From Candidatus Omnitrophota bacterium (GTDB lineage: Bacteria > Omnitrophota > Gorgyraeia > Gygaellales > Profunditerraquicolaceae), in contig QZKH01000003.1 in the NCBI GenBank assembly GCA_003598025.1, forward strand, positions 375,221-439,220: a stretch of 64,000 bases of DNA, written 5' to 3'. The translations under genes and the position numbers were made by a program. Shown piece after piece: positions 31,957-50,357 of the stretch. The first letter of the stretch is position 1. The number at the start of each line of letters is the position of its first letter. The notes beneath the pieces are model-generated. The model worked only from the letters and a program-made list of their open reading frames with translations, made no database searches and was not told where the DNA came from.

Positions 31957-31976
31957 GCTTTACCTCATTTCTTTTA

Positions 31977-32047
31977 GTTCATGGTTCACGGTTCATGGTT
32001 CATAAAAAATACCAAGGCTATGAACAATGAACTATCAACTATGAACT
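31977..32047 (-). repeat. Heptamer-tandem inverted repeat (hairpin) between the dnaJ stop and the fmdB start
   Basis: Four copies of GTTCAYG (31977-32003), a 16-nt spacer, then four copies of ATGAACW/ATCAACT (32020-32047). The arms pair over about 27 nt. Confidence 0.6.
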
Positions 32048-32050
32048 AAT

Positions 32051-33211
32051 TTATCTAAACGTCTTCTTTATCTTTTCCGTAAAGCTTTCCTTGTTTATTT
32101 CTTCGCCGGAAAGCCTGGCAAATTCTTCTATCAGCCTTCTCTGCTCGCTGGTCAATTCAGATGGAATCAGCACATTTACCCTAACCAGCTCATCGCCTAT
32201 ACCCCTGCCATGCAAATCTGCAATCCCTTTAGCCCTCAACCTGAACACCTTGCCGGCTTGAGTACCTGCAGGTATCTTCATCTTAACTTTGCCTAATAAA
32301 GTTGGCACCTCTATTTCAGAACCTAAAATAGCTTTAGATAAGCTTATATCCTTTTCGGTTAATATATCATTGCCGTGCCTCTGGAATAACGGATGAGGTT
32401 CAACCTCAATTACAACATACAAGTCGCCCTTGGCAGACGTGCCGGCTTCGCCTTCTCCTCTTACCCTCAACTGAGAGCCTGTATCGACGCCGGGAGGTAT
32501 TTTGACCTTTATTTTGCGGGTAACTTTGGTCTTACCCTGGCCGTTACAAACCGGGCAAGGACTCTGGATTATTGTGCCTTCTCCACCGCACTTTGAGCAA
32601 GTTTGTGTAAGTTGAAAAAAACCGTTGGAAACAACCATTCTCCCGGTACCCCGGCATTGGGAACAAGTTGTTTTCTTAGAACCGGGCTTAGCCCCTGTCC
32701 CGGAACAATTTGAACATATCTCATATCGCGGGACAGTTACTGTTTTTTCAGTACCCATTGCTGCCTCTTCAAGCCTTATACTTACGGCAATTTGCAGGTC
32801 GCGCCCGCGTCTGCCTCCGCGGCGGCCAGGCTTGCCCCCGAGATCAAAGCCAAGGTCGCCGAATATTTCATCGAACAATCCTCCGCCAAAACCAAAATCG
32901 GACAAATCGCTGAATACCGAGCTAAAATCTGCTCCTTTGAAAATATCTTCGTAAGCATACTTCTGGTCAATGCCTGAATGGCCATACTGGTCATAGAGCC
33001 CCCTCTTCTGGGGATCGGAAAGGACAGCGTAAGCCTCTGATATTTCTTTAAATTTCTCTTCTGCTTCCTTCTTCTGCTCATGCGGCACCCTGTCAGGATG
33101 AAATTGCAAAGCAAGCTGCCTATAGGCTTTCTTTATTTCATCTAAAGAAGCGCTTTTATTTACCCCTAATATTTCGTAATAGTCGCGTTTAGTGGACATA
33201 TATTGGTTCAT
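32051..33211 (-). CDS. dnaJ: Chaperone DnaJ. The conserved start is probably the internal [13 protein letters not shown] near 33199.
   Basis: J-domain HPD motif (QFHPDR), G/F region and four CxxCxGxG zinc-finger repeats. Confidence 0.9.
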
Positions 33212-33277
33212 TGATCATGGTTCATGGATCATGGTCCATGGATATCTCTATGAACTATGAACCATGAACTATGAACT
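33205..33277 (-). repeat. Heptamer-tandem inverted repeat that fills the whole dnaK-dnaJ intergenic region and contains the ORF-track dnaJ ATG
   Basis: Five copies of GRTYCAT (33205-33241), the spacer gatatctct, then four copies of ATGAACY (33250-33277). Confidence 0.6.
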
Positions 33278-33279
33278 AT

Positions 33280-35157
33280 TTATTTCTTATCATCTTCCTC
33301 TTTATATTCTGCGTCGATAACGTCGTCCTTCTTATCCTCGGGCTTTTCTTGTGTCCTTGTGTCCTTGTGTCCTTGTGACTCTTTGCTTTCTTTTTGCTGT
33401 TTTTCCGCTGCCTGCTTATAAATTTCTTCTGCAAGCTTATGGGACGACTTAGTCAGCTCCTCCATGCCCTTTTTGATCCTATCGACGTTTTTATCCTTAA
33501 TAGCCTGTTTTAAATCATTGGTCTTAGCTTCTATATCAGCCCTTTCAGCCTGGCTTACTTTATCGCCGAACTCTTTCAGAGATTTTTCAGTTGAATAAAC
33601 CAGCGTATCAGCCTGGTTTATAACCTCTATTTCTTCTTTTTTCTTTGAGTCTTCAGCCGCGAATTTTTCAGCATCCTTGACCATCTTTTCAATTTCTTCT
33701 TTAGATAACTTCTTAGGCGCGGTTATCCTTATGGATTGCTCTTTGCCCGTACCTAAATCTTTGGCTGAAACATGCACGATACCGTTGGCATCGATATCAA
33801 AAGCGACCTCTATCTGCGGTACGCCTCTGGGCGCAGCCGGTATGCCTACAAGGTCAAACCTGCCCAGCTCCACGTTGTCATTTGCCATAGAGCGCTCGCC
33901 CTGGAGAACGCGGATAGTTACTGCAGTCTGGTTATCGGCCGCGGTAGAAAAAACCTGGCTCTTTTTCGTAGGAATGGTCGTATTGCGCTCGATTAATTTT
34001 GTATTTACTCCGCCTAATGTTTCAATGCCAAGAGACAAAGGAGTAACATCAAGCAGAAGCACATCCTTCATGTCCCCTTTGATTATTGCTGCCTGAATTG
34101 CTGCGCCTAAAGCCACGCACTCCATAGGGTCAACTCCGCGCTCAATCTTCTTGCCTACGTAGTCCTCGACAAATTTTTGCACTATCGGCATCCTTGTCGG
34201 GCCGCCTACCATTATGATCTTGTCAATATCTGCGGATTTAAGCCTTGCATCTGCAAGCGCCTGTTCCATAGGGTGTTTGCATTTTTCAATTATGGGAGAT
34301 ACCAATTCCTCCAGCTTTGCGCGCGTAATCGACATAGTAAGGTGCTTAGGACCGGTTGCGTCGGCGGTAATAAAAGGCAGATTTATATCTGTGGTAAGAG
34401 TAGAGGACAACTCCACCTTTGCCTTTTCAGCTGCCTCACGCAGCCTTTGCGTTGCCATCTTATCGTTATGCAGGTCAATGCCTGTTTCTCTTTTGAACTG
34501 ATTTACTATATAATCAATCAGGATATTATCCATATCGGTACCGCCAAGCTGGGTATCTCCGGAAGTTGATTTTACCTCAAATACACCCTGGGCCATCTCC
34601 ATTATCGTAACGTCCAGTGTCCCGCCGCCAAGATCAAAGACCATTATCTTCTGTTCCTTATGCGACTTCTCCAGGCCATAAGCCAGGCATGCGGCAGTGG
34701 GCTCATTGATAATCCTCAAAACTTTCAAGCCGGCAATTTCACCTGCATCCTTGGTTGCGGTCCTCTGGTTATCATCAAAATATGCGGGGCACGTAATAAC
34801 AACTTCTTCTACTTTATCTCCCAGGTAAGCCTCGGCATCCTGCTTTATTTTCTGGAGGATGAACGCAGATATTTGTTGTGGCGTATATTCCTTGCCATGG
34901 GCTTTAAACTTATAGTCCGTACCCATTTTACGCTTAGCAGCATGAATCGTGCCTTCAGGATTAATCGCAGCTTGCCTTCTTGCGGGTTCCCCGACCAACC
35001 GCTGGCTATCTTTCGTAAAAGCTACAAACGAAGGGAAGGCTTTACCGCTTGCGACACCTGCGCCTTCAGCAGAAGGTATAATCACAGGCCTGCCGCCCTC
35101 CATAACTGCTGCTGCAGAATTTGATGTACCTAAATCAATACCTATAACTTTTGCCAT
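33280..35157 (-). CDS. dnaK: Chaperone DnaK (Hsp70)
   Basis: [19 protein letters not shown] and the other Hsp70 signatures. 625 aa. SD AGAGGAGG. Confidence 0.95.
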
Positions 35158-35188
35158 ATCTCTACCTCCTCTATTATTTTAGTCAATG

Positions 35189-35246
35189 GTCGACAGTCCA
35201 TAATCAACAATCATGCCTGTGAACCGTGGTCCGTGGACTGTGGACA
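35189..35246 (-). repeat. Heptamer-repeat hairpin spanning the grpE 3' end and the grpE-dnaK spacer
   Basis: TGTGAAC CGTGGTC CGTGGAC TGTGGAC (35218-35245, inside the grpE coding sequence) pairs with GTCGACAGTCCAT (35189-35201). Confidence 0.45.
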
Positions 35247-35774
35247 TTTTTTTGATACCTTAACCTTGCTCGTCCTTACGACCCTGTCATTAAGCAAATA
35301 ACCTTTTTGTAATTCCTCTACAATAGTATGCTCCGGTAAATCATCACATTGTTCTTCCATCAAAGCTTCATGAAAACTGGGGTCAAATTTCTTGTTCTTT
35401 GCTTCAATAGGCTTTACCCCGTGCTCTTTAAGCATTTCGTAGAGATGGGCTAAAATCATCTCTACGCCTTTTAAAAACGCCGATAAATCCTGATGCTTGC
35501 TTTGAGCCAGTTCAACTGTACGCTCAAGGTCATCAAGCACATTCAATAATTCCATTACAATTCTTTCATTGGCAAACTTTATAAATTCCTGTTTGTCTCG
35601 TTCCAGGCGTTTCTTAGTATTTTCAAATTCAGCCTGCATCCTCAAAATCCTGTCCCAATGGTCTTCAGCTTTAGCTGCCGCCTCTTTAAGCTTAAGGTAC
35701 TCAGCCTCGCTGATTGTGACTGTCTTATCCTGTGATACAAGTTCTTCTTTTTTTTCTTTGTTATTCTTTTCCAT
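35211..35774 (-). CDS. grpE: Nucleotide exchange factor GrpE
   Basis: Coiled-coil N-terminus followed by the GrpE domain. It overlaps the hrcA stop, which suggests one operon. Confidence 0.85.
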   Translation of the reverse strand: MEKNNKEKKEELVSQDKTVTISEAEYLKLKEAAAKAEDHWDRILRMQAEFENTKKRLERDKQEFIKFANERIVMELLNVLDDLERTVELAQSKHQDLSAFLKGVEMILAHLYEMLKEHGVKPIEAKNKKFDPSFHEALMEEQCDDLPEHTIVEELQKGYLLNDRVVRTSKVKVSKKCPQSTDHGSQA

Positions 35775-35776
35775 GT

Positions 35777-36514
35777 CTAAAATTTGTTTAAAACATCATC
35801 TAAAACTTCTGATATATACTCAAGAGCAGGTATAATATGTTCGTATTCCATGCGCGAGGGGCCTATTACCGCCACCCTGCCTTTATGTTTTTTCTTATTC
35901 CCGTAGGTAGAGACAACTATCGAGCAATGGCTCATCTCAGGGCATTGAAGCTCCTCGCCTATATAAACTTTTACCTTGTTGTCAAAATCCCGGTTGATTA
36001 TCTCAAGTAGTTTTTGTTTTTCCTCGATCAATCTGATCAAAGCCTTAAGCTTGACTGCGTCCTGGAACTCGGGCTGTTCCAATATATGGCTTATGCCTTT
36101 ATAGAATATCTTATCGTGCCAATCCAGGAAGGAAACTATCCCCGTATATTTGGTTATCTTGGATATTATCTCCGAAGTATTCTCAAGTACGTCTTCAAGC
36201 TGATTGATCTTACTGCTGCAGTCTTTTACAATACGCTCTTTTTCATCATCCAGCAATTCCATCTGCGATATAAGGAAATCAACATAATACCTGTATCCCT
36301 TATTTGTAGGAAGGCGGCCTCCTGAGGTATAAGGGTGAGTAAGATATCCTTCATTCTCAAGCTCACAGAGTATATTCCTTATTGTTGCCGAACTTAAGCT
36401 GAATTCTTCCGCCAGGTCATCTGAAGCAACTGGAGAAGCATCTTTAATATATTTGTTAATAGCCAGAGATAAGACTGCTTTTCTTCTGCTATTATAATCA
36501 ACTGTTCTTACCAT
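35777..36514 (-). CDS. hrcA: Heat-inducible transcription repressor HrcA (short, 245 aa)
   Basis: N-terminal winged HTH (SSATIRNILCELENEGYL). A CIRCE element and promoter lie directly upstream. Confidence 0.8.
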   Translation of the reverse strand: MVRTVDYNSRRKAVLSLAINKYIKDASPVASDDLAEEFSLSSATIRNILCELENEGYLTHPYTSGGRLPTNKGYRYYVDFLISQMELLDDEKERIVKDCSSKINQLEDVLENTSEIISKITKYTGIVSFLDWHDKIFYKGISHILEQPEFQDAVKLKALIRLIEEKQKLLEIINRDFDNKVKVYIGEELQCPEMSHCSIVVSTYGNKKKHKGRVAVIGPSRMEYEHIIPALEYISEVLDDVLNKF

Positions 36515-36535
36515 AAAAACCTCGCTTTTTCTAAA

Positions 36536-36562
36536 TTAGCACTTTACCCCTTAGAATGCTAA
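36536..36562 (-). promoter_or_regulatory. CIRCE operator (HrcA binding site) upstream of hrcA-grpE-dnaK-dnaJ
   Basis: TTAGCACTT-N9-GAATGCTAA against the consensus TTAGCACTC-N9-GAGTGCTAA (16 of 18). Confidence 0.7.
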
Positions 36563-36568
36563 ATAGAA

Positions 36569-36596
36569 ATTTTAACACAAAATCGATGTTTGTCAA
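36569..36596 (-). promoter_or_regulatory. Sigma-70 promoter of the hrcA operon (TTGACA-16-TAAAAT), 6 nt upstream of CIRCE
   Basis: Reading the minus strand gives ttgacaaacatcgattttgtgt TAAAAT. Confidence 0.5.
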
Positions 36597-36635
36597 CAAG
36601 GCATTTAACCTTATATTACTAAAAAAGTTAACTTA

Positions 36636-39251
36636 TTAGCCTATATCAAAAACAAGGGCTTCCTTGTCGGCATTTACCAACACTTTGCTGCCGGATTTCA
36701 AAGAACCATCCAGTATCTTCATTGAAAGCGGATCCTGTACGTATTTCTGAATCGCCCTTTTAAGGGGCCTGGCTCCGAAATTACTGTCAAAACCTTTTCC
36801 CGAAAGAAAGGCTTTTGCCTTTGCCGATACCTTTAATTCAATGCCAAGCTGGCTGAGCTTATTCTTAACGGGCAGCAATTCAATATCAACGATCTCTTCA
36901 ACAGATTCTTTAGATAAAGGATTAAAGACTATTATATCGTCAATCCTGTTTATGAATTCCGGGCGGAAATACCCTTTTACCTGATCAAGGAGCTTTTCTT
37001 TCATATCGGCGAAGCTATCCTTCTGTAGCTTGTTAGGCTTAAATCCAAGGCTTGCCTGCTGCTGTATCAGCTCCTGGCCTATATTAGAAGTCATGATTAT
37101 CACTGTGTTCTTAAAATTAACCGTCCTGCCCTGGCCGTCAGTAAGCCTGCCGTCATCAAGTATCTGCAATAACACATTGAATATTTCCGGATGCGCTTTT
37201 TCTATCTCATCAAGCAATATGACTGAATACGGCCTTCTTCTTACTTTCTCGGTAAGCTGCCCGCCTTCCTCATAGCCTACATACCCTGGAGGGGCGCCGA
37301 TCAACCTGGAAACACTGAACTTCTCCATGTATTCAGACATGTCTATTCTCAAAATAGCATTTTCGTCATCAAATAAAAACCATGCAAGTGTTTTGGCTAA
37401 TTTGGTCTTGCCTACTCCTGTCGGGCCCAAGAATATAAACGAACCCATCGGTCTTGCCTCATCGGAGAGTCCGGACCTGGAGCGCCGTATACAGCTTGAA
37501 ATTATGCTGACAGCTTCATCCTGGCCGATTACCTTGCTCTTTAAGCGCTCTTCCATCTTAAGAAGCTTCTGGGTATCGGCTTCCATAAGCTTAGTTAAAG
37601 GCAGGCCTGTCCACTCCGCGACAATCTCAGCGATATCTTCATCATTGACTTCCTGGCGCAGCATCCCTAAACCACTCTCAAGCCTGGAAAACTCTTGGTT
37701 ATATTTATTAAGCTCAATATCTAATTCTCTTAATTTTCCGTATTTGATCTCCGCAACCTTACCCAGGTCTCCCGACTGTTCAGCTGCCTGCGCCTGGTTT
37801 TTCAATTCTTCGATATTCTCCTTGATAGTTTTGATTTTTAATATTATGCTTTTTTCTTTCTCCCATTGCTTCTTCTTCGTTGACAATTCCTTATTCAGAT
37901 TTTCAAGCTCCGCATCTATCTTCTTAAGCCTTTCTACGGCAGGCTGGTCTTTATCTTTTTTTAATGCCTGCTTCTCTACCTCAAGCTGGACGATCCTTCT
38001 TTGCACAAATTCAATCTCGGCAGGCATGCTGTCTATCTCAATGCGTAAACGTGAAGCCGCCTCATCGATCAAATCTATCGCTTTATCAGGAAGATGCCTT
38101 TCCGTAAGGTAGCGGTGCGATAGCATCGCAGCGGCGATAATCGCAGAATCTTTGATACGCACGCCATGGTGTATCTCATATTTTTCTTTCAGGCCGCGTA
38201 AAATAGCGATGGTATCCTCAATACCGGGTTCATTAACATAAACCTGCTGGAACCTTCGCTCTAAAGCCCTGTCTTTCTCTATATATTTCCTATATTCATC
38301 CAAAGTAGTAGCTCCGATACAGCGCAATTGCCCGCGTGCAAGCAAAGGCTTAAGCATATTAGAGGCATCAATAGCGCCCTCTGCGGCTCCGGCTCCGACT
38401 ATAGTGTGAAGTTCATCGATGAATAAAATTATCTGCCCGTTTTTATTTTGTATCTCACGCAATACGGCTTTAAGCCTGTTCTCAAATTCCCCTCTGAATT
38501 TCGTCCCGGCGACCAAGCTACCCATGTCCAACGCTATTATCTTTTTATCTTTTAAGCCCTCAGGCACATCTTTAGAAATTATCCTTTGGGCAAGCCCTTC
38601 AACTATCGCAGTCTTACCGACACCTGCTTCGCCTATCAATACGGGGTTATTCTTGGTCCGCCGCGATAACACCTGGATTAAGCGCCTGATTTCTTTATCC
38701 CTGCCGATAACCGGATCAAGTTTCATACGCGCGGCTAATTCAGTAATGTCCTGGCCGTATTTTTTTAAAGCGTTGAATTTCTCTTCCGGGTTCTCGTCAG
38801 TTATCCTGTGGCTGCCGCGTAACTCTGCAAGCGATGCTAAAACCTTTTCTTTATCAATCCCGTTATTCTTCAGTTCCCTTAAAATCAATGATTCATTATC
38901 TGATAGCGAAGCCAGAAGCACATGCTCGGCTGAAATGAATTCATCCTTAAGCCCGGCCGCCTCTTTTGCCGCCTGAGCAAACAGTTTATTTGTGCGCCCT
39001 GAAAAGTAAACCTGCGAGCCCTGGCCGCTTACGGCAGGTTTATTATGCAAATATTCCTCCAGCTTTTTTATGAGGCCTGCAATAGAAACACCGAGTTTAT
39101 CAAGGGTGTCAGCAAAGATAGATTCTTCCTGTTTAATAAGGATATACTCCAGATGTTCAGGGTCTATTTGTTGATGGCCTGATTCAGTAGCAAAACTTAT
39201 TGCTTCTTGTAAAGCTTCCTGCATTTTCGCTGTAAGTTTATCCAATCTCAT
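36636..39251 (-). CDS. clpB: Chaperone ClpB (Hsp100 disaggregase)
   Basis: Two AAA+ modules ([16 protein letters not shown]), a long coiled-coil middle domain and the ClpN N-terminus. 871 aa. Confidence 0.9.
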
Positions 39252-39292
39252 ATTAATCTCCTTAAAATTTGTCTTAATTTTAATTTCTCAAA

Positions 39293-39319
39293 TTAGCAAT
39301 CCATCTTAAAGAGTGCTAA
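39293..39319 (-). promoter_or_regulatory. Second CIRCE operator, between hspR and clpB
   Basis: TTAGCAATC-N9-GAGTGCTAA (17 of 18 to the consensus), 41 nt upstream of the clpB ATG. Confidence 0.65.
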
Positions 39320-39340
39320 TCATAAAACAAAAAAATTTAA

Positions 39341-39601
39341 TTATTTGCCTTCAACCTCAAGGATTAACTTTATACCATGAATATTAACATGCTTTTCTTG
39401 CATCAGATAATGTATGTATTCCAGCTTTTTTATGTCTTTCAAAGAATATAGCCTGCTTTTTTTACCTATACGCTTAGGTTTAAGCACTCCGCTTTTATCC
39501 AGTTGCCGTAAAGTCCAGATAGGTATATCTACCAGCCTGCTTACCACGCTAATGACATAGACCGGCTCGTCAGGGCTAATGTAAATATCAAACATCGGCA
39601 T
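39341..39601 (-). CDS. hspR: MerR-family HTH regulator, HspR-like
   Basis: YVISVVSRLVDIPIWTLRQLDKSGVLKPKR is a MerR-type HTH. It sits immediately upstream of clpB. Strong SD AGGAGG. Confidence 0.5.
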   Translation of the reverse strand: MPMFDIYISPDEPVYVISVVSRLVDIPIWTLRQLDKSGVLKPKRIGKKSRLYSLKDIKKLEYIHYLMQEKHVNIHGIKLILEVEGK

Positions 39602-39626
39602 TTCTGCCTCCTTTTTATCTTATAGA

Positions 39627-39688
39627 AGTATATCATAACATAATTATCTTGTCAAGATAATATTATTTTTTTTGTTAGATAATCTAAC
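39627..39688 (-). promoter_or_regulatory. hspR promoter (TTGACA-17-TATACT) with two palindromic operator-like sites
   Basis: The palindrome TTATCTTG-t-CAAGATAA (39644-39660) contains the -35 hexamer. A second palindrome GTTAGAT-a-ATCTAAC lies at 39674-39688. Confidence 0.4.
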
Positions 39689-39742
39689 AGTTACATAACA
39701 TATTTACTAACAATTAGTTATAGCGCAGATTACTGTTGGTTA

Positions 39743-41008
39743 CTACTCTAACCACTTTATTTCTTTTATATTTAGCAGGTTTTGATATACATTTTTAGGA
39801 AGGCTGGCTTTGATTTTTATGCTGTCTTGCAGGTATTTAATCTCTTCTATCCTGGCTTGGCGATACAGAAGGTTTACCAGATCCATGCGCGTTAGAGGAA
39901 GCTTGAATTCTTTTGATATGTTATGGTTAACGAACATTGAAGTTATTTTTTCAAACAAAACATCAAAATTCTTCCCGTTCTTTGCCGAGATACAAACACT
40001 GTTGGCAAATGTTTTCTTCATCTTCTCCAGGTATTCATTGTCCTCTACCAGGTCTATCTTATTAAGCGCAGTAATCATCGGTTTATCTTTAGCGCCCAAT
40101 TCATCCAGGACTTTAAACACAGCCTCGGCTCTCTTCTCTGCCATAGACTGGCTTATATCCAAGACATGGATCAATATGTCCGCATATACAACCTCTTCAA
40201 GCGTGGCTTTAAATGCTTCAATTAAATGATGCGGTAATTCGCTTAAAAAACCTACAGTATCCGAAATAACAATTTTCTCATTATTCGGCAAGGTAAAGGA
40301 TTTTGTTAATGGGTCAAGGGTAGTAAACAGGCTATTGCTCACTATTTGCGAAGATTTAGTTATGGTATTAAGAAGAGTGGACTTGCCGGCATTCGTGTAG
40401 CCTACAAGAGCTATTTGAGGTATAGAATTGTCTTTCCTTTTTTTTCTTATTGTCTGGCGGTGCATTTCCAGGTGCTTAAGTTCATGCTTAAGGCGTATAA
40501 TTCTTTCTCTAATACGCCTGCGGTCAATTTCAAGCTTCTGCTCTCCCGGCCCGCTGGTCCCCACCCCGCCTCCGAGCCTGGATAATACAAGCCCTTTGCC
40601 GATAAGCCGTGGCAAAAGATATTCGCTTTGGGCTAACTCCACCTGCATCTTTCCTTCGGGGCTCCTGGCGTGCTTTGCGAATATATCAAGAATAAGCTGA
40701 GTCCTGTCTATTGTCTTCTTGCCTATTATATCTTCGAGGTTACGCTGCTGTATCCCGGATAAATCATGGCTGAAGATAACGACATCGATTTTCTCTTCCT
40801 GGCATATCAGGGCGATCTCTTCAGTCTTTCCTTTTCCTATCAATAAATTCGGCGTGGGCTTATCGCACACACAGCTTATATTATCCACGATCTCTACCCC
40901 GCAGGAAGCAACCAGGTCTTCAAGTTCACAGGCAATCTCGTCAATAGACCAGGTATTTCTCTGAGATTTAAATCTTATAGTTACAAGTAATGCTCTTTCC
41001 ATAATCAA
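39743..41008 (-). CDS. hflX: GTPase HflX
   Basis: HflX N-terminal domain followed by the G domain (GYTNAGKSTL, DTVGF). 421 aa. Confidence 0.8.
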   Translation of the reverse strand: MIMERALLVTIRFKSQRNTWSIDEIACELEDLVASCGVEIVDNISCVCDKPTPNLLIGKGKTEEIALICQEEKIDVVIFSHDLSGIQQRNLEDIIGKKTIDRTQLILDIFAKHARSPEGKMQVELAQSEYLLPRLIGKGLVLSRLGGGVGTSGPGEQKLEIDRRRIRERIIRLKHELKHLEMHRQTIRKKRKDNSIPQIALVGYTNAGKSTLLNTITKSSQIVSNSLFTTLDPLTKSFTLPNNEKIVISDTVGFLSELPHHLIEAFKATLEEVVYADILIHVLDISQSMAEKRAEAVFKVLDELGAKDKPMITALNKIDLVEDNEYLEKMKKTFANSVCISAKNGKNFDVLFEKITSMFVNHNISKEFKLPLTRMDLVNLLYRQARIEEIKYLQDSIKIKASLPKNVYQNLLNIKEIKWLE

Positions 41009-41011
41009 GTG

Positions 41012-41503
41012 TCATTTCAATTCAAACTCATTGGTCCTGGCTTCAAGCCACCGCCAATCCTTTGAATCATCGCTTTCTCTTATCTGGTAATTTAATATAA
41101 TACGGTACGTTCCGGGCTGCGCCAACCTGTTTTTGCCATTGTCCCCTTTGACATATACCTGCGGCTTCCATAAAATAATCGCGTTATTTTGCGGCTGCAT
41201 TGCAACCGGCGCATCAAAATCTATATCACATTCGGGCATGCTGCAATTGACTTCATACGCTGCCCAGGAACCGTCAGGCTCCTTCTTCTCAAGCCTGTTG
41301 ATGGCAAATTGAGGCGTAGAGCTGGCAGCGATACTGTAAATTACATCATCGCTCATATTTAAAAAAGTTATTTTTACATCTTGGCCTACATAGTAACTTT
41401 TTATATCTGTCTTTGCCTCTATTCCTTGGCCAAAAACGGCGCTGCCGGTAAAAAGCAGCGCTGCAAATGATGCCAAAACAATGCTAATTAGTATACACCT
41501 CAT
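41012..41503 (-). CDS. Hypothetical secreted protein
   Basis: Signal peptide MRCILISIVLASFAALLFTGSAVFGQ. No family recognised. Confidence 0.4.
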   Translation of the reverse strand: MRCILISIVLASFAALLFTGSAVFGQGIEAKTDIKSYYVGQDVKITFLNMSDDVIYSIAASSTPQFAINRLEKKEPDGSWAAYEVNCSMPECDIDFDAPVAMQPQNNAIILWKPQVYVKGDNGKNRLAQPGTYRIILNYQIRESDDSKDWRWLEARTNEFELK

Positions 41504-42492
41504 TTTGCCGCCCCCAAAAGCTTATTTATTCTTTCAGCAACAGACGAAGCCCTCTCCCCCGGCTTTAGCGTTACCCACTTTATCCTTTTATCCTTCCTAA
41601 ACCAGGTTAACTGCCTTTTGGCATAAAGCCGGCTGTTATGTTTCATACATTCTTTTGCCTCTTCAATGGAAATATCGGAATCGAAATATTTCTTTAATTC
41701 ATTTATCCCTATTGCATATCTGGCAGTTTTGCTTAATTTGTTTCTTAGCAACTTTTGCACCTCGTTTATAAGCCCAAGCCTGAACATTCTATCAACTCTT
41801 TTGTTTATCCGGTTGTAAAGAAATTTTCTGTCCATATTGATACAAAAAATCCTTACGTCATAATCGCTGTAAAGCCCGCTGCGCAGCTTTTGTAATTCTG
41901 ATATAGGCTTTCCTGTAGAAATATACACTTCAATAGCTCTTACAATGCGTCTGGTATCATTAGGGTGGATCTTAGCTGCAGCCGCAGGATCAATAAGCCT
42001 AAGCCTTTCATGCAACGCCGGGCTCCCTGTTTTTAAAGCCTCCGCATAAAGTTTATTTCTGACTTTCATATCTGGCCTGCCCTGCTGAAAGAGCCCGTCT
42101 ATTAATGCCGAAATATAGAGCCCGGTTCCGCCTACAAACAGCGGAACCTTGCCTTTTTTCAATATGCGCTCTATTATTTTTACTGCTTCGCTTCTAAATT
42201 TTGATACGCTATAATCCCTGGCCGCCGGCACCGTGCCGAACAGATGATGCCTGATACTTTTAAGTTGGAACGCCGTAGGTTTTGCTGTCAAAATATCCAT
42301 CCCTTTATAAACCTGCATCGAATCACAAGAGATTATCTCTGCGTTTATCTTTTTAGCCAGCGCAATTGAAATATCGGTTTTTCCGGACGCAGTAGGGCCG
42401 GCAAGAAAAATGATCTTTTCCTTCCCGGTACGGCTTTTTGCGCTTGTATTATAGTCCTTTGATACCGAAATCATGCTTTTACGGACGGCCAT
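41500..42492 (-). CDS. miaA: tRNA dimethylallyltransferase
   Basis: P-loop GPTASGKT and the DSMQVYKGMDI.TAKP motif. Confidence 0.85.
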   Translation of the reverse strand: MAVRKSMISVSKDYNTSAKSRTGKEKIIFLAGPTASGKTDISIALAKKINAEIISCDSMQVYKGMDILTAKPTAFQLKSIRHHLFGTVPAARDYSVSKFRSEAVKIIERILKKGKVPLFVGGTGLYISALIDGLFQQGRPDMKVRNKLYAEALKTGSPALHERLRLIDPAAAAKIHPNDTRRIVRAIEVYISTGKPISELQKLRSGLYSDYDVRIFCINMDRKFLYNRINKRVDRMFRLGLINEVQKLLRNKLSKTARYAIGINELKKYFDSDISIEEAKECMKHNSRLYAKRQLTWFRKDKRIKWVTLKPGERASSVAERINKLLGAAK

Positions 42493-43250
42493 CAGGGGCA
42501 GATTTTGGTAGGATAACCTTCAGCGGACAGTTGCTTTCCCAGGCTTTCCGCATCCTGTTTTTCTGAAAGCTTGCCCACTCTTACACGATAAGAAGAGGAA
42601 GAATCAAGGGTCGCTTCTTCTATGTATGCAGAGTACCCTTTTTTAAGCAATTCCTGCACCAGGTTTTTGGCATTATCCTGGCTGGAAAATGCGCCCACCT
42701 GCACCGAATAATAAGTAACATCTTTTTTATCAATCAGGCAAAAATCCCTGTCATTCTTTTCTTCCAGGCTTAATGGAAATTCCGTTTTTAATTTTTCCGA
42801 ATATTCCTTGCCTTGAGCGGCATTGCCAAGCTTAAACCCGGTTTCGCTTAAACGGTAATAAATACGCGCGCGTAGCTCCTCATTACCCAATAGCTCTTTA
42901 TAAATCAAATCTGCCTTATTGTAATCTCCTCTTAAAAGATAAACATCCCCAAGCCCGAGCTTCGCTTTGTCTTTATACTTTGCAGGTTTTAATTCATTTA
43001 TAATTATTTCAAATATATCCGAGGCTCTTAAATAGTTTCCGTCTTGCAAATAGCTTAAACCAAGCAGATAATAAAGCTCATCAATACCGTAAGAAGAATG
43101 GTCTGAGGAAGATACCAATTTTTCTCCTTCTTTTATCGCTGCCTTATAATCCCCCTGGAGGTATTTGATCTTTATATTATCAAGGTTAAGGCCGTAAACG
43201 CCAGTTGAAACAAAGGCTAAAACCAGGAATAAAATTATAGTTATACGCAT
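42492..43250 (-). CDS. TPR-repeat protein with a C-terminal SPOR (peptidoglycan-binding) domain
   Basis: Signal peptide, TPR-like repeats and a C-terminal YSVQVGAFSSQDNAKNLVQELLKKGYSAYI SPOR signature. Confidence 0.6.
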   Translation of the reverse strand: MRITIILFLVLAFVSTGVYGLNLDNIKIKYLQGDYKAAIKEGEKLVSSSDHSSYGIDELYYLLGLSYLQDGNYLRASDIFEIIINELKPAKYKDKAKLGLGDVYLLRGDYNKADLIYKELLGNEELRARIYYRLSETGFKLGNAAQGKEYSEKLKTEFPLSLEEKNDRDFCLIDKKDVTYYSVQVGAFSSQDNAKNLVQELLKKGYSAYIEEATLDSSSSYRVRVGKLSEKQDAESLGKQLSAEGYPTKICP

Positions 43251-43253
43251 AAC

Positions 43254-44486
43254 TTAACCCTTCGTGCTTTTGGAGATTTTCCTTTGTAAATCCAGGACCT
43301 TCTTATGCCTCATATTCTTTTCCTGCGCATCGATGTTATCGGCAAATTTTAAGGCTTCGGTATGAGGCCGCGGAGAATATTTGAATATGTAGGCTGAGTT
43401 AAATTCAACTTCTTTGACTAAATTGTAGGTATCCATAAAATCTTCTTCGGATTCACTGGGAAAGCCTACGATAACATCAGTAGTTAATACCCCATTTTTA
43501 ACTATTTTACGATAATTAGACACTAAATCCAAATAGAATTTTCTGGTATAACCCCTATTCATCAAATTAAGTATCTTATCAGAACCTGACTGCACCGGCA
43601 AGTGCAGTGATTTCTTGAGCTTGTCAAAGCCTGCCACTGCCTTAAAAAGTTCATTTGTTGTATCCCTAGGATGCGAAGTAAGGAAACTAAATTCCTTTAG
43701 CCCTTTAACCCTATTAACCATTTCCAATAATTTAACAAAATCTATGAACTCTGAACCATGAACTATGAACTTATAGGCGTTTACGTTCTGCCCCAATAGT
43801 GTAATACTCGTTATTCCTTTATCAATTGCCTGCTCAATTTCCTTGATTATATCCTCTGGCTTTCGCGAACGCAAATTTCCCCTGACATAAGGGACAACAC
43901 AATAAGAACAATAATTTTCGCAGCCTTCTGAAATTACCACAAAAGCATGATTCTTATCCGCATAAAATCCGGTATGATAAATCTCATCGGGCCTCACCAG
44001 ACTATCCGTTTCCCAAATTTTCTTCTCAAACATGCTTTTACCATTAACCATGAACTGTGAACCATGAACAAGTATCTCTATTATCCCCGGTATCTTATGT
44101 ATATCCGTTGGGCCAACAACAAAATCCACATTAGGCGCTATCTCAAAAACCTTATCTTTATAATTCTGCGCCATACACCCCACAAGGCCAATTATTGGTG
44201 ACTTTGTGACTTTGTGACTTTGTGACTCATTTTTGTAGGCACCTATCTGGCTCCAGACCCTATCCTCCGCATGCTGCCTAACCGCGCAGGTATTCAGGAT
44301 TATTACATCAGCAGCCTTAGGATCAGTTGATAGTTCATAGTTCATAGATCGTAACAAACCAGCGATAACCTCCGAATCCCGCGCATTCATTTGACATCCG
44401 AAGGTGCGCAAAAGCACTCGTAACTTCTTCTCGCTTTTGCCCCCGGAATTGCCTGATTTGTCGTCTTTTCGCTCATTTTCAACCAT
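43254..44486 (-). CDS. miaB: tRNA-2-methylthio-N6-dimethylallyladenosine synthase (MTTase). The N-terminus is atypical and overlaps the recombinase gene.
   Basis: RTFGCQMN MTTase motif, radical-SAM CENYCSYC and a TRAM-like C-terminus. It contains in-frame 7- and 8-nt tandem repeats. Confidence 0.75.
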   Translation of the reverse strand: MVENERKDDKSGNSGGKSEKKLRVLLRTFGCQMNARDSEVIAGLLRSMNYELSTDPKAADVIILNTCAVRQHAEDRVWSQIGAYKNESQSHKVTKSPIIGLVGCMAQNYKDKVFEIAPNVDFVVGPTDIHKIPGIIEILVHGSQFMVNGKSMFEKKIWETDSLVRPDEIYHTGFYADKNHAFVVISEGCENYCSYCVVPYVRGNLRSRKPEDIIKEIEQAIDKGITSITLLGQNVNAYKFIVHGSEFIDFVKLLEMVNRVKGLKEFSFLTSHPRDTTNELFKAVAGFDKLKKSLHLPVQSGSDKILNLMNRGYTRKFYLDLVSNYRKIVKNGVLTTDVIVGFPSESEEDFMDTYNLVKEVEFNSAYIFKYSPRPHTEALKFADNIDAQEKNMRHKKVLDLQRKISKSTKG

Positions 44487-46066
44487 TTTGTCCCCTCTTC
44501 ATAGCAAGTCTTCCACGGCTCATTCAGCTCGAACTTCACGATCTCCTGATTCTGGATGTGAATCGACTTGAAGATGATCCGCATAAAGGTTTTGACCAGA
44601 TAATCCAACTGGTGGTCATCCGGCGTGTTCCGCAACCTCAAAAGGAAATCCTGCGTCGCCTTAACAAGGTTTGCGGAATTGCGCTTATCCAGAATCTTGA
44701 GCTGAATCGCCTTGATATCCTGCTTTAGTTTTTTCTCTTCATTACTTAAAAGCTCTGCTCTTTCCTTGTAGAGCGCAAGATTAATCTTATCCTCCGAGAA
44801 AAGCTCGTAAATCCCCCGTTGCTTCTCAATATTTTTCTTAAGATGCGCTTCCTTCTCCTCCAATTGTTCAATGTATAATTGCTCCGGCTCAGAAGCGCTT
44901 AATTTGATCATGTCACCCAACTCCTCGATGACATGGATATTCTTTCGGATGACTTCAATAATATCCCATATCGGCCTATTGAGCGCGTCAGCCGTAACCG
45001 ATTTATTATTGCACTTAATATGCGGAATGCCCTTCGATGAGCAACGATACCACGGCCTGCGCATCTTGGTGCGATGATTAACGGTAGACATAATTCCGCG
45101 ATAATTACCGCCGCATTCATTGCACTTTATGATTCCAGAAAGATGATAAACATTATTTCTAAACCTAACCACGCCATTGGTGCGGTTCCGTTTAAGAAGC
45201 TCTCTTGCCTCGTCAAAATCTTTTTGCGTGATGATCGCCTCGTGGGTATTGAATACTTCAATAATCTTCGAGGGATCGTTATTCACATACTTATACCCTT
45301 TACCTTCGCCGTTCTTAGTTTTCTCTTTTGTGTTGTAGCGGCGACGGTTCCACACCAGCATGCCCAGATAAACTTTGCTCTGCAGAATATTGGAGATGAA
45401 TTTGTTATAAAACCGGCCTCCCTGCCGCGATGGAATCCCGAGAGCGTAATAATGCCCGGCAATCTGCGAAGTGCTTTTGCCGCTGATATACATCGCATAA
45501 ATCTCTTTAACGATCTTTGCTTCCTCCGGATGGACTTCCAGTTTCTTGGCGTCTTTATTATATCTGTAGCCATACGGCGCATACCTCGCGCCCTGCCAGT
45601 GGCCACGCTTAACCCCTACGACCATGCCGGGAAATACGCGCTCAACCAGACGATTGCGTTCAAACTCTGCGCAACTACCAAGCATCTGAATCGCCATCTT
45701 TCCCGCGCTGGACGTAGTATCAAACGGTTCGGTGGCTGATTTATATCCGATACCAAGTGAATCAAACTCCTCAAGCAATCCCAGCAGATCCTTGAGCCGC
45801 CTGCTTAAACGATCTTGTTTGTAGACCAAAACAAGATCAAATTGTTTATTACGCGCGTCAAACAAAAGCCGCTGAAGCGCCGGTCTGTCCATATTCCCGC
45901 CGGAATAGCCATCATCCACATAAACATCCCTGCCTGACATGGTACAAATAACATCCCAGGTGAAATTTTTCGCGTATTGCAAAAGATATGCCCTCTGAAC
46001 CTCCAGCGAAAAGCCTTCCCGCGCCTGATCCTCTGTGCTGACTCTTGTATATAACGCTACTCTCAT
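44387..46066 (-). CDS. Large serine recombinase (integrase)
   Basis: N-terminal resolvase catalytic domain MRVALYTRVSTEDQ with the catalytic Ser, a recombinase domain, a Zn ribbon (CNECGG) and a coiled coil. 559 aa. Confidence 0.85.
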   Translation of the reverse strand: MRVALYTRVSTEDQAREGFSLEVQRAYLLQYAKNFTWDVICTMSGRDVYVDDGYSGGNMDRPALQRLLFDARNKQFDLVLVYKQDRLSRRLKDLLGLLEEFDSLGIGYKSATEPFDTTSSAGKMAIQMLGSCAEFERNRLVERVFPGMVVGVKRGHWQGARYAPYGYRYNKDAKKLEVHPEEAKIVKEIYAMYISGKSTSQIAGHYYALGIPSRQGGRFYNKFISNILQSKVYLGMLVWNRRRYNTKEKTKNGEGKGYKYVNNDPSKIIEVFNTHEAIITQKDFDEARELLKRNRTNGVVRFRNNVYHLSGIIKCNECGGNYRGIMSTVNHRTKMRRPWYRCSSKGIPHIKCNNKSVTADALNRPIWDIIEVIRKNIHVIEELGDMIKLSASEPEQLYIEQLEEKEAHLKKNIEKQRGIYELFSEDKINLALYKERAELLSNEEKKLKQDIKAIQLKILDKRNSANLVKATQDFLLRLRNTPDDHQLDYLVKTFMRIIFKSIHIQNQEIVKFELNEPWKTCYEEGTKWLKMSEKTTNQAIPGAKARRSYECFCAPSDVK

Positions 46067-46067
46067 T

Positions 46068-46838
46068 TTATACCCTTTGCGCCTTACGTAATTCTATGAA
46101 CTCCTCATCGCTAATTTCCTTATTTTCATAAACAGTTTCATCCCGTAATAAATTTTGTCCTTTGACCGTTTCAACACGATGTCCGTAGCCAGTTAAAATA
46201 CAATGTGGGATTATCATTTCCTTAACAAACGGATTTTCCTCAGCAGTCTTCTTTATATATATTTCACCAGGTGACCAGAAATAGATATCTTCTCTTGCGC
46301 CTACCGCAAAAAAATATGTCGTAATATCATAAATTATTTTTAAAGCGCTTAAAGTTTTGGCCTCAATGTCTTCCAGCTTATTAAAATGAATAACTTCGTG
46401 CCGAATATCTTTAAGCTCCATATACTTCACTTTTATCTCATCTGAGATAATTACCTTCCAATCACATAATATGTCTACCGATTTCGACCAATCATCGAAT
46501 GAATCTTTTCTATATATATGCTTGTAGTGTTCACTAGATTTATAATGATCTCGAAGTCGCAGTAAAAGAATATTAAAAATCCTTTCGCCCAAACAACATG
46601 CGGAGGTTAATGCGGGATAATATAAACCATAAATGAAGCAATCCTCTATTTCTTGCAGTAAATCATGATATTCAGTAATTACCCGTAACGAAGGTGGCTT
46701 AAAAGACATATATCTCTCAAATTTTTCATCAAGATTCAAATCGCCGTAACGACTAGCAACATGCTGTTTTATTTCCTGCGGCACAGGAATATTTCTAATG
46801 CAATCAATAAAGAAATTTGTTGCCCTATATCGCTTCAT
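46068..46838 (-). CDS. Uncharacterised 256-aa cargo protein of the element
   Basis: No motif recognised. It lies between the Xis-like gene and the integrase, with a 1-bp gap to the integrase gene. Confidence 0.4.
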   Translation of the reverse strand: MKRYRATNFFIDCIRNIPVPQEIKQHVASRYGDLNLDEKFERYMSFKPPSLRVITEYHDLLQEIEDCFIYGLYYPALTSACCLGERIFNILLLRLRDHYKSSEHYKHIYRKDSFDDWSKSVDILCDWKVIISDEIKVKYMELKDIRHEVIHFNKLEDIEAKTLSALKIIYDITTYFFAVGAREDIYFWSPGEIYIKKTAEENPFVKEMIIPHCILTGYGHRVETVKGQNLLRDETVYENKEISDEEFIELRKAQRV

Positions 46839-50078: not shown

Positions 50079-50093
50079 AGTTTCAATGCCTCC

Positions 50094-50357
50094 TACTAGC
50101 TACATACGCAAGGATTTGGAAAACTGACGGAAATATTTTCATTTTTTTCGACCCTCTACTAGCTACATACGACGTTTTTTGTAAAACTGACGGAAATATT
50201 TTCACTTTCTTCACCACTTTCACTCCCCTAAGCGTATATTCCCCTTTTTCCCGAAAAGTGTCGGAACTTTCTGCCCCCTCATAGGTGATTACGCAAAATT
50301 TCCAAAAGTGTCGGGGCTCTCACCTATGTACACGCAATATTTTTCAAAGTGTCGAAC
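50094..50357. repeat. Iteron-like direct repeats (putative origin of the element)
   Basis: Two 48-bp direct repeats (50094-50141 and 50157-50204, sharing CTACTAGCTACATACG...AAAACTGACGGAAATATTTTCA). Three copies of AAAGTGTCG(G/A) at about 50253, 50303 and 50344. ATAGGTGA/TCACCTAT flanks the middle copy. Confidence 0.5.

Follow-up and report, generated by a model that had tools for sequence, protein, structure and literature searches.

The tandem repeats inside dnaK, grpE and the miaB-like gene of this Omnitrophota bacterium belong to a population of short tandem arrays, built on heptanucleotides or sometimes octanucleotides, that is found throughout the lineage. In the Omnitrophota clade each array measures about 30 nt (4.3–4.6 units), occurs singly or in inverted, hairpin-forming pairs, and is ancient at set positions of the syntenic cluster miaB, SPOR-domain gene, miaA, hflX, clpB, hrcA, grpE, dnaK and dnaJ. 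At slightly better than an even chance, we regard the arrays as STRR-like heptamer microsatellites that homogenise themselves and survive in genes only if they are in frame, free of stops and structurally tolerated. The features of the window, that is the whole stretch of 64 kb analysed, were as follows.

31977–32048, minus strand: hairpin 3' of dnaJ, with arms (TAGTTCA)n and (ATGAACC)n
33204–33279, minus strand: intergenic hairpin between dnaK and dnaJ, each arm a heptamer array (one TTCATAG-type, the other CCATGAN-type)
33280–35157, minus strand: dnaK (Pfam)
33348–33377 (30 nt), minus strand: dnaK C-terminal tail array, unit CTTGTGTC x3.75 by TRF, 100% perfect, CACAAGGA x3.75 on the sense strand, encoding 10 residues (codon register read)
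35182–35203, minus strand: degenerate inverted arm, TGGACTGTCGACCATTGAC (mRNA strand), located upstream of the dnaK ribosome-binding site and able to pair with the C-terminal array of grpE
35211–35774, minus strand: grpE (Pfam), GrpE domain ending at about residue 175
35219–35245, minus strand: grpE C-terminal heptamer array, GTCCACA GTCCACG GACCACG GTTCAC, encoding CPQSTDHGS (TRF, codon register)
43254–44486, minus strand: miaB-like gene (Pfam)
43742–43771, minus strand: MiaB site 4 heptamer array, AGTTCAT AGTTCAT GGTTCAG AGTTCAT AG, encoding KFIVHGSEFI (TRF, codon register)
44040–44069, minus strand: MiaB site 3 heptamer array, GTTCATG GTTCACA GTTCATG GTTAATG GT, encoding VHGSQFMVNG (TRF, codon register)
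44198–44227, minus strand: MiaB site 2 octamer array, GTGACTTT x3.75 by TRF, 100% perfect, read as AGTCACAA x3.75, encoding ESQSHKVTKS
44323–44352, minus strand: MiaB site 1 array, TTACGAT CTATGAA CTATGAA CTATCAA CT, encoding LRSMNYELST (TRF, codon register)

The five coding repeat sites listed in the initial annotation (one each in dnaK and grpE, three in miaB) were all found as described using TRF and the codon register, and their motif family (TTCATRG, GTCCACR) is indeed shared with the intergenic hairpins at 31977–32048 and 33204–33279. The repeats do not come in threes, as had been stated; copy number is 3.75–4.4 units, or about 30 nt. The miaB array at 44323–44352 is a sixth coding array absent from that list. 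An octamer periodicity at miaB 43694–43723 was weak, lay inside the conserved peptide EMVNRVKGLKE and was set aside as probably due to chance.

Nine period-7 arrays of at least 2.8 copies were observed against a mean of 0.22 in 100 codon-shuffled windows (about 40-fold), and three period-8 arrays against a mean of 0.30 (about 10-fold). An independent autocorrelation scan gave six period-7 and two period-8 tracts, with 0.03 expected for each; periods 4–6 and 11 gave none, and periods 9, 10 and 12 one tract each. Eleven of the 12 arrays of period 6–8 were located inside 31977–44347, which is 19% of the window. Across about 441 kb of Omnitrophota loci, 26 period-7 arrays made up a length peak at 29–34 nt and others were grouped at 57–70 nt, while 848 kb from other phyla held no period-7 array longer than 26 nt except one of 50 nt. 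The codon frame alone is not a sufficient explanation of the size class of about 30 nt, because intergenic arrays, which are free of the frame, are also about 30 nt long. Density differed by genome, from zero in the 21-kb loci L006, L024 and L027 to 6–10 arrays per 10 kb in L003, L005, L013, L025 and L026.

Four loop positions of MiaB carry arrays in many Omnitrophota, with lineage-specific units and, in several genomes, a different unit at each site. Arrays orthologous to site 1 are present in L081 and L083. The perfect arrays of site 2 are each built on a different unit: AGTCACAA for the window, AGTGTCAA for L081 and GTCCACA for L083. With 4.0 copies, the AGTGTCAA array is perfect in L206 and L207 as well as in L081. 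The site 4 orthologs are AGTTCGG x4.6, perfect in the same three, and CAGTTCC in L083; the site 4 peptide follows the pattern X1X2V, four residues, X1X2V, where X1X2 is FG, FI, FE, SP or ST depending on lineage. Taken together, the arrays sit at a helix end, in loops, in a predicted beta-hairpin and in a protein tail, which agrees with their placement in insertion-tolerant parts of proteins. Site 2 lies in a variable-length loop following helix 71–90, site 3 in a low-confidence loop (mean pLDDT 61, residues 141–150), and the site 4 segment is a beta-hairpin by structure prediction.

Segment length is bimodal at site 3 (modes of 9–11 versus 16 residues) and at site 4 (10–11 versus 17), and both segments are 6–7 residues longer than in array-less orthologs, equivalent to about three heptamers. 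Site 1 shows no net length gain over array-less orthologs, with 8 of 12 residues changed, and the DnaK tail is not lengthened (625 aa versus 627–652 in relatives). The earlier view of the arrays as inserts fits MiaB sites 3 and 4 but is too simple for MiaB site 1 and the DnaK tail. Selection for keeping the frame, also proposed earlier, is supported by the gain at sites 3 and 4 and by deviant units that avoid stops: at site 1 the third full unit departs from the repeat exactly where an in-frame TGA would arise, and at site 4 an unbroken repeat would create an in-frame TAG at the very place of the deviant unit.

Judged by sequence comparison, the arrays are old and not recent local events, because they are common by position to species whose MiaB proteins are 60–70% identical. 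Within each array the units are uniform, while the unit sequence varies between lineages. In L081, L206 and L207, whose miaB DNA is 80–82% identical, all 63 nt of sites 2 and 4 agree, against a three-way background identity of 0.774 for all positions and 0.55 for third positions; the chance of this is about 2e-8 with independent sites and about 0.02 under concerted evolution of whole units. At site 3 in the same trio only 3 of 36 nt are kept at unchanged length, the units having been replaced. Such concerted evolution supports, at the level of sequence, a homogenising repeat process, and of the active repeat-generating process suggested earlier this is the part that stands, whereas no repeat-associated element or enzyme was found within the 64-kb window. 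A point against the microsatellite explanation is that near-identical genomes showed no length variants; the high slippage flux is thus inferred, and consensus assemblies cannot reveal such flux. The proposal of strain-variable segments was not borne out, as none occurred among the few near-identical pairs (L083 and L084, with 3 SNPs in 18 kb; L081 and L082, identical) or in RJP29066.1, a MiaB from a 567-kb contig that is identical at protein level to that of the window.

In the heat-shock genes, the hairpin between grpE and dnaK has the grpE C-terminal array as its 5' arm and folds with -19.1 kcal/mol on the mRNA strand and -24.2 on the plus strand; the grpE stop codon falls in the unit next to the array, and a homologous GrpE extension and hairpin are present in L083. 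The dnaK-dnaJ hairpin (-27.8 kcal/mol, z -4.7) has about one mismatch per unit, its 3' arm extends to the dnaJ start region, and L001, L007, L014, L022 and L026 have a hairpin of different units at this position. The one that follows dnaJ folds with -27.7 kcal/mol (z -6.5). Mismatches recur at 7-nt intervals along the hairpin stems, the pattern that separate homogenisation of the two arms would produce. REP/BIME-type extragenic palindromes are found inside operons at gene 3' ends, and the array hairpins resemble them in lying between co-transcribed genes (grpE-dnaK, dnaK-dnaJ and after dnaJ) as stable stem-loops with no U-tract. They differ in that their stems are tandem heptamers mismatched every 7 nt, and no GTAG or CGTC tag or RAYT-like gene was seen in the 64-kb window. 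The intergenic paired arrays probably act as REP-like mRNA hairpins in the heat-shock operon. In L013 (-41.6 kcal/mol, z -9.2), L025 (-38.7 kcal/mol) and L003 (-33.7 kcal/mol), miaB itself contains complete array hairpins in frame; together with the length-neutral change at site 1, they are awkward for purely local slippage.

These in-frame hairpin modules and the seeming overwriting of site 1 at unchanged length would fit miniature mobile or copy-paste elements. In that case an enzyme or ectopic gene conversion would place ready-made modules, about 30 nt long or about 70 nt for an array hairpin, at new sites by insertion or conversion, coding loops among them; we consider this explanation unlikely, though it is the best placed of the alternatives. 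The TTCATRG family occurs at no fewer than 7 loci of the window in both orientations, and units matching at 6 or more of 7 positions are 6–7 times commoner within a locus than between loci, which suggests exchange or spread between loci, unlike simple local slippage. The quantised module length with a second class about twice as long, the unrelated units that replace site 3 in genomes about 80% identical, and the sharply unequal density between genomes (0 versus 6–10 per 10 kb) point the same way. Against it, the copies share periodicity only, with no consensus; terminal repeats, target-site duplications and a candidate transposase were not found in the 64-kb window; the arrays are positionally orthologous across species and not scattered; sites 3 and 4 have a net gain of about 21 nt, short of 30; and the other 50 kb or so of the window, rich in housekeeping genes, is nearly devoid of arrays. 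In-frame MITE insertions occur in cyanobacteria, and Rickettsia palindromic elements (RPEs), reportedly described by Ogata and colleagues in 2000 as selfish DNA in protein-coding genes, are 100–150 bp long with a family consensus. As with these, repetitive DNA is tolerated in frame in conserved proteins at surface or loop positions, adding peptide segments with no evident function, and some copies can form hairpins. Unlike RPEs, the Omnitrophota modules measure about 30 nt singly and about 70 nt as pairs, have periodicity alone in common, and occupy positions orthologous across species, not independent insertions.

The nucleotide-level conservation of two arrays (63 of 63 nt in genomes about 80% identical) could instead reflect nucleic-acid function, the arrays serving, for example, as structured RNA or thermosensors, or binding a multimeric factor, within a heat-shock and miaB supra-operon, with selection on periodic nucleotides in DNA that also codes. 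Somewhat less probable still, this explanation draws on the concentration of 11 of the 12 arrays in the heat-shock gene cluster, which has CIRCE sites at 36536–36562 and 39293–39319, and on hairpins kept at conserved intergenic positions with differing sequences and arms that change together, some adjoining the dnaJ start codon. The arrays of MiaB sites 1 and 4 are moreover complementary (-26.6 kcal/mol in the window, -28.1 in L081, with one compensatory A-T to G-C change) and are paired with each other when the full-length mRNA is folded to its minimum free energy. However, duplex energies for the two sites are equally strong between and within genomes, P0004 and P0008 have site 4 only, and P0012, P0017 and P0043 have site 1 only. 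Lone coding arrays are unstructured when folded alone, unit diversity is too great for one sequence-specific binding partner, there was no Rfam match, contigs of other organisms with (TTCATRG)n show no link to heat-shock genes, and homogenisation under protein constraint also predicts a freeze at the nucleotide level.

Phase-variable simple-sequence contingency loci are described in Haemophilus, Neisseria and Moraxella (PMC4679880). The arrays are like them in lying within coding sequence, in a unit length not divisible by three and in evolving by slippage, and internal homogeneity implies that slippage is frequent. It is nevertheless very unlikely that slippage by one unit toggles the reading frame of miaB, dnaK or grpE, given short tracts of about four units, housekeeping and heat-shock genes instead of surface or restriction-modification genes, all assembled copies in frame, and no copy-number difference between near-identical genomes or independent assemblies. 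Chance, assembly artefact (a risk raised earlier, the source being a MAG) or convergent amino-acid constraint is hardly credible as the origin of more than the weak tract at 43694–43723, as the arrays stand 10- to 200-fold above shuffled controls, are shorter than a sequencing read, leave ORFs intact and recur identically in contigs from different samples, a second record (RJP29066.1) has the same MiaB protein, and orthologs with the same residues also share the DNA repeat.

The closest known counterparts of the arrays are heptanucleotide tandem repeats in other bacterial groups. Cyanobacterial STRR were reportedly described in Calothrix and Nostoc by Mazel and colleagues in 1990. Work on other phyla (PMC4679880; PMC4692102) describes heptamers among the long simple-sequence repeats (LSSRs), a class that PMC4679880 credits to Mrazek et al. 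2007, sets out a slippage model and notes that four units are preferred, with GGGNATC repeats in Xanthomonas and Nostoc (PMC4692102) and TAACTGA repeats in Beggiatoaceae (PMC4679880). The Omnitrophota arrays share with STRR/LSSR heptamers the 7-nt tandem unit, many dispersed loci, genome-specific units, the preference for about four units, frequent placement beside start or stop codons and an occasional one at ORF ends. In contrast to them, about half of the Omnitrophota arrays are translated in frame in conserved housekeeping proteins, at orthologous internal loops; inverted pairs make long hairpins, sometimes within coding sequence; and concerted evolution with a freeze-or-replace pattern is documented. 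The units also have no G-runs, so the G-quadruplex explanation of the four-unit preference is inapplicable. Within the literature searched, no paper linked Omnitrophota with heptamer repeats, which makes the phylum new for heptamer arrays on that basis.

Under the microsatellite explanation, arrays would originate or expand when a local unit of 7 or 8 nt is copied from the template with slippage or out of register, and frequent misaligned copying or repair inside the array would keep the units identical. In genes, the survivors would be net three-unit changes (21 or 24 nt) or length-neutral conversions, with selection purging any array that disrupts the frame, carries an in-frame stop or lies outside permissive loops and tails. 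A homogenised heptamer would be read in all three codon phases, so that no unit-level change is fully synonymous, and arrays in constrained peptides would for this reason be frozen even at third codon positions, while those in unconstrained loops would undergo complete turnover at constant length. The effect on the protein would be a surface segment of 7–10 residues of essentially arbitrary sequence.

The tandem arrays, blocks of 7- or 8-nt units about 30 nt long, lie in a region of the window where all genes are on the minus strand. The window comes from an Omnitrophota MAG, assigned to GCA_020060685.1, contig JAGUZT010000008.1. Gene identities were assigned by Pfam, and each operator carries 1-2 mismatches.

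32051-33211, minus strand: dnaJ (true start probably 33199)
33280-35157, minus strand: dnaK
35211-35774, minus strand: grpE
35777-36514, minus strand: hrcA
36536-36562: CIRCE-like operator upstream of hrcA
36636-39251, minus strand: clpB
39293-39319: CIRCE-like operator upstream of clpB
39341-39601, minus strand: small MerR-type gene just upstream of clpB
39743-41008, minus strand: hflX
41500-42492, minus strand: miaA
42492-43250, minus strand: TPR/SPOR-domain gene
43254-44486, minus strand: miaB-like methylthiotransferase

Because CIRCE operators precede hrcA and clpB, the region is assigned as a heat-shock cluster. The whole miaB-to-dnaJ stretch looks like a single heat-shock supra-operon, and its MerR-family gene may be HspR-like. 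Among solved structures, Bacteroides uniformis MiaB (E = 5e-78) is closest to the miaB-like protein. In this clade (comparison loci L001-L022 and L024) the miaB-like product stops at about residue 410 and is missing the C-terminal TRAM domain, which is retained in MiaB of more distant Omnitrophota (L023, L025-L027) and of other phyla. Across 1-64000, GC skew stays negative and the minus strand carries all long ORFs taken as genes; the 64 kb therefore appears co-oriented on one replichore.

Every coding array listed in the initial annotation was found by TRF, with matching peptides when read in codon register, and a sixth that had been overlooked was detected in miaB at 44323-44352. In MiaB relatives, arrays recur at these four positions with lineage-specific units. 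The coding arrays are given below, with window MiaB residues and structural context from an AlphaFold model (mean pLDDT 87.9).

44323-44352, minus strand: miaB site 1, residues 45-54, end of a helix
44198-44227, minus strand: miaB site 2, residues 87-97, lower-confidence loop
44040-44069, minus strand: miaB site 3, residues 140-149, loop with pLDDT ~61
43742-43771, minus strand: miaB site 4, residues 239-249, predicted beta-hairpin
35219-35245, minus strand: grpE C-terminus
33348-33377, in minus-strand dnaK: C-terminal tail

Nine period-7 arrays were observed against 0.22 expected from 100 codon-shuffled windows, and three period-8 arrays against 0.30. An independent autocorrelation scan returned six tracts of period 7 and two of period 8 (0.03 expected for each), one each at periods 9, 10 and 12, and none at 4-6 and 11. 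Eleven of the 12 period-6-8 arrays of the window fall within 31977-44347; the remaining ~50 kb, with some 40 housekeeping genes, holds only one, which is AT-rich. The window tally is five to six intergenic arms and six coding arrays, an intergenic enrichment relative to the small intergenic fraction. An 8-mer tract at 43694-43723 was left out, being weak and encoding a conserved peptide.

As first proposed, the coding heptamers of miaB and grpE belong to the families (TTCATRG, GTCCACR) of two intergenic hairpins. The TTCATRG family and its complement are dispersed over loci, at 31977, 32018, 33204, 33248, 43742, 44040 and 44325. Unit pairs matching at 6/7 positions or more make up 10-12% within a locus versus 1.5-2% between loci. 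An Rfam search of 31-48 kb with E up to 0.1 gave no match.

The hairpins downstream of dnaJ (31977-32048, z = -6.5) and between dnaK and dnaJ (33204-33279, z = -4.7) have heptamer arrays as arms. The grpE C-terminal repeat was present as originally listed, and is additionally the 5' arm of a third hairpin, between grpE and dnaK, with the stop codon in the following unit. The arms mismatch at every seventh base, as expected if each arm is homogenised separately; the hairpin of L007 consists of five 6-bp helices with single mismatches between them. Whole inverted-array hairpins are translated inside miaB in L013 (-41.6 kcal/mol), L025 and L003.

In each of the three hairpins the plus strand (antisense to the genes) gave the more stable fold, at -29.3 vs -27.7 kcal/mol for the mRNA strand in 31965-32055, -35.0 vs -27.8 in 33195-33285 and -24.2 vs -19.1 in 35155-35250. 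The periodic stem mismatch reads as G.U in one strand and as A.C in its complement. A recognisable Shine-Dalgarno sequence is lacking at dnaJ (33199-33243). There the 3' arm of the dnaK-dnaJ hairpin comes to within ~8 nt of the probable start codon, and the array contains the first ATG of the dnaJ ORF; this array-at-start arrangement is repeated in L007 and L026.

According to PDB and ortholog alignments and AlphaFold, the arrays sit in frame at surface positions of conserved proteins that tolerate them, and they are missing from some orthologs. In an alignment of 59 MiaB sequences, the segment falls into two length classes at site 3 (9-11 vs 16 residues) and at site 4 (10-11 vs 17 residues), a gain of 6-7 residues or about three heptamers, and is a constant 13 residues at site 1. 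The GrpE array forms a 12-residue extension past the GrpE domain, with a homologous extension in L083 (KKSPQSTDDSPQ vs KKCPQSTDHGSQA). Window DnaK, at 625 aa, is no longer than its relatives (627-652 aa). Selection is visible in deviant units that avoid in-frame stops: CTATCAA (site 1) and GGTTCAG (site 4) stand exactly where a perfect array gives in-frame TGA or TAG. The two perfect octamer arrays are stop-free in every frame.

Closer relatives for comparison were obtained via the protein database. Orthologous arrays proved near-perfect internally, with every unit differing between lineages. At site 2 the units are AGTCACAA x3.75 in the window, AGTGTCAA x4.0 in L081 and GTCCACA x4.0 in L083; at site 4 they are AGTTCAT, AGTTCGG x4.6 and CAGTTCC, respectively. 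The site 4 peptide reads X1X2V, four residues and X1X2V again, where X1X2 is FI, FG, FE, SP or ST. Lineage-specific and internally uniform, the arrays show concerted evolution.

The miaB DNA of L081, L206 and L207 is 80-82% identical. Outside the arrays, the fraction of positions shared by all three is 0.774 overall and 0.55 for third codon positions. The site 2 and site 4 arrays match at 63/63 nt in all three, an outcome with a probability of ~2e-8 if sites are independent and ~0.02 if units change as wholes. At site 3 only 3/36 nt are retained, with length unchanged, and the units in the three loci are CTCAGTC, TCCATCA and AACTCTC x5.0 (perfect). L081 has an array at site 1, where L206 and L207 have ordinary sequence. 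The strain-variable protein segments initially envisaged were not seen in the small set of near-identical pairs compared: arrays are identical in L083 and L084, two loci separated by 3 SNPs over 18 kb, and L081 and L082 are themselves identical. A second record, RJP29066.1, has a MiaB protein identical to that of the window.

For the wider distribution, a MiaB scan of one genome per species returned ~30 Omnitrophota loci; the comparisons rest on consensus assemblies with flanks of up to 20 kb. The miaB-to-dnaJ gene order is kept in Omnitrophota loci with sufficient flank. The density of period-7 arrays per 100 kb is 15 for Omnitrophota loci versus 5.7 for other phyla, and load varies sharply by genome, from none in the 21-kb loci L006, L024 and L027 to 6-10 per 10 kb in L003, L005, L013, L025 and L026. 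In 441 kb of Omnitrophota DNA, 26 arrays make up a sharp length class at 29-34 nt, and there is a lesser group at 57-70 nt; lengths in 848 kb from other phyla fall off steadily, none exceeding 26 nt except a single 50-nt array. Octamer arrays are also ~30 nt, and the preferred size is therefore set in nucleotides rather than units.

A metagenome scan with (TTCATRG)3 returned at least 80 loci (L085-L164) from very diverse organisms, some with telomere-like arrays. Among the matches listed there was no specificity to the window lineage, no other strain of the window species and no link to heat-shock genes. The TTCATRG/ATGAACY arrays of these contigs are often inverted pairs of ~29-32 nt, with GC from 0.34 to 0.65 and from many environments. 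Their presence in such varied contigs makes the heptamer widespread well outside the window lineage.

A small integrative element lies at the exact 5' end of miaB, at 44385-~50600.

44387-46066: large serine recombinase (integrase)
46068-46838: ORF of the element
47716-49845: primase-helicase, an NrS-1-type primase with D5-like helicase

The MiaB N-terminus is replaced by one supplied by the element (MVENERKDD...KKLRVLLRTFGCQMN). Identity of the integrase is 85-92% and that of the junction DNA 87-92% in L001, L006, L014, L016, L023 and L025-L027, whereas MiaB of these loci is only 41-63% identical to window MiaB. The sequences suggest a widely transferring element, for which the conserved FGCQMN-coding sequence of miaB may be the attachment site. 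A 63-bp unit repeated x1.9 (86% match) at 50093-50212, close to where the element is presumed to have its far end, may represent an iteron or attachment-site feature.

The arrays share the defining features of heptanucleotide LSSR/STRR repeats (7-nt head-to-tail units, at least three copies, significant excess, dispersed family). For the predominantly intergenic location of such repeats the picture is mixed: the window arrays are enriched between genes, yet their coding share is far above that reported for known heptamer repeats (PMC4692102, PMC4679880). Phase-variable contingency loci are long tracts in surface, virulence or restriction-modification genes with frame-shifted alleles, whereas the window tracts have about four units, lie in miaB, dnaK and grpE and leave all ORFs intact; copy-number variation is absent from the near-identical pairs L083/L084 and L081/L082. 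RPE/MITE-like elements share the in-frame permissive placement, but these form a family with a defined-length consensus, and the window units differ by site and genome and have only periodicity and ~30 nt in common; no defined termini or target-site duplications were evident in codon-register views of the arrays. The GTAG or CGTC tag of REP/BIME with RAYT is missing from the window hairpins, and no Y1 (RAYT) transposase was found among the window ORFs scanned. A literature search returned no paper joining Omnitroph* with heptamer. The repeat type is already known. What is new is that conserved proteins carry it systematically, in frame and at orthologous places, along with the hairpins inside coding sequence and the documented concerted evolution.

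The simplest model covering the facts combines a microsatellite, homogenisation and a frame filter, with a slippage flux that we infer. The arrays would be heptamer microsatellites of the type known from cyanobacteria, Xanthomonas and Beggiatoaceae, where published work describes an origin by slippage and about four units as the preferred size (PMC4692102, PMC4679880). Misaligned copying or repair inside an array would keep its units identical, and within genes arrays would persist only if frame-preserving, stop-free and in tolerant segments. The units of a homogenised heptamer array are translated in each of the three codon phases in turn, which means that changing the unit always changes amino acids. 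Where the peptide is constrained, an array would therefore be frozen to third positions; in disordered loops it could turn over. Such codon-phase reading would account for the freeze-or-replace pattern without a nucleic-acid function.

The model leaves over the fixed length of ~30 nt, intergenic arrays included, the occurrence of one unit family at many loci in both orientations, the overwriting of site 1 without length change, and the inverted-array hairpins translated inside miaB. On account of this remainder two rivals are retained: one in which arrays spread between loci by being inserted or converted, and one in which they are functional elements with dual coding. It is rather improbable, in our estimate, that the Omnitrophota heat-shock/miaB supra-operon maintains the arrays as dual-coding nucleic-acid modules, in which 30-nt periodic tracts, single or as complementary pairs or hairpins, would function as RNA or DNA (e.g. 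as temperature-sensitive structures or multimeric-factor sites) and be kept perfect or rewritten by dedicated length-preserving templating, even in coding sequence. Long-range pairing of miaB sites 1 and 4 (~-27 kcal/mol in the window and L081) was not specific enough, and is kept only as a minor rival because between-genome controls were equally strong and the arrays are not always co-present. A tie to the serine-integrase element was rejected, as the array-free genomes L006 and L027 also have it.

Heptamer repeats are a long-standing puzzle of some bacterial genomes and are usually treated as intergenic. Here conserved proteins carry the arrays in frame in orthologous loops, and protein alignments can therefore serve as an internal clock and as a gauge of constraint. 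Comparative data could address how fast arrays are homogenised, why their length sits near 30 nt at period 7 or 8, and whether protein or nucleic-acid selection freezes them. Gene callers and MAG curators should not handle such tracts as errors. The arrays illustrate a route to lineage-specific surface loops in essential proteins.
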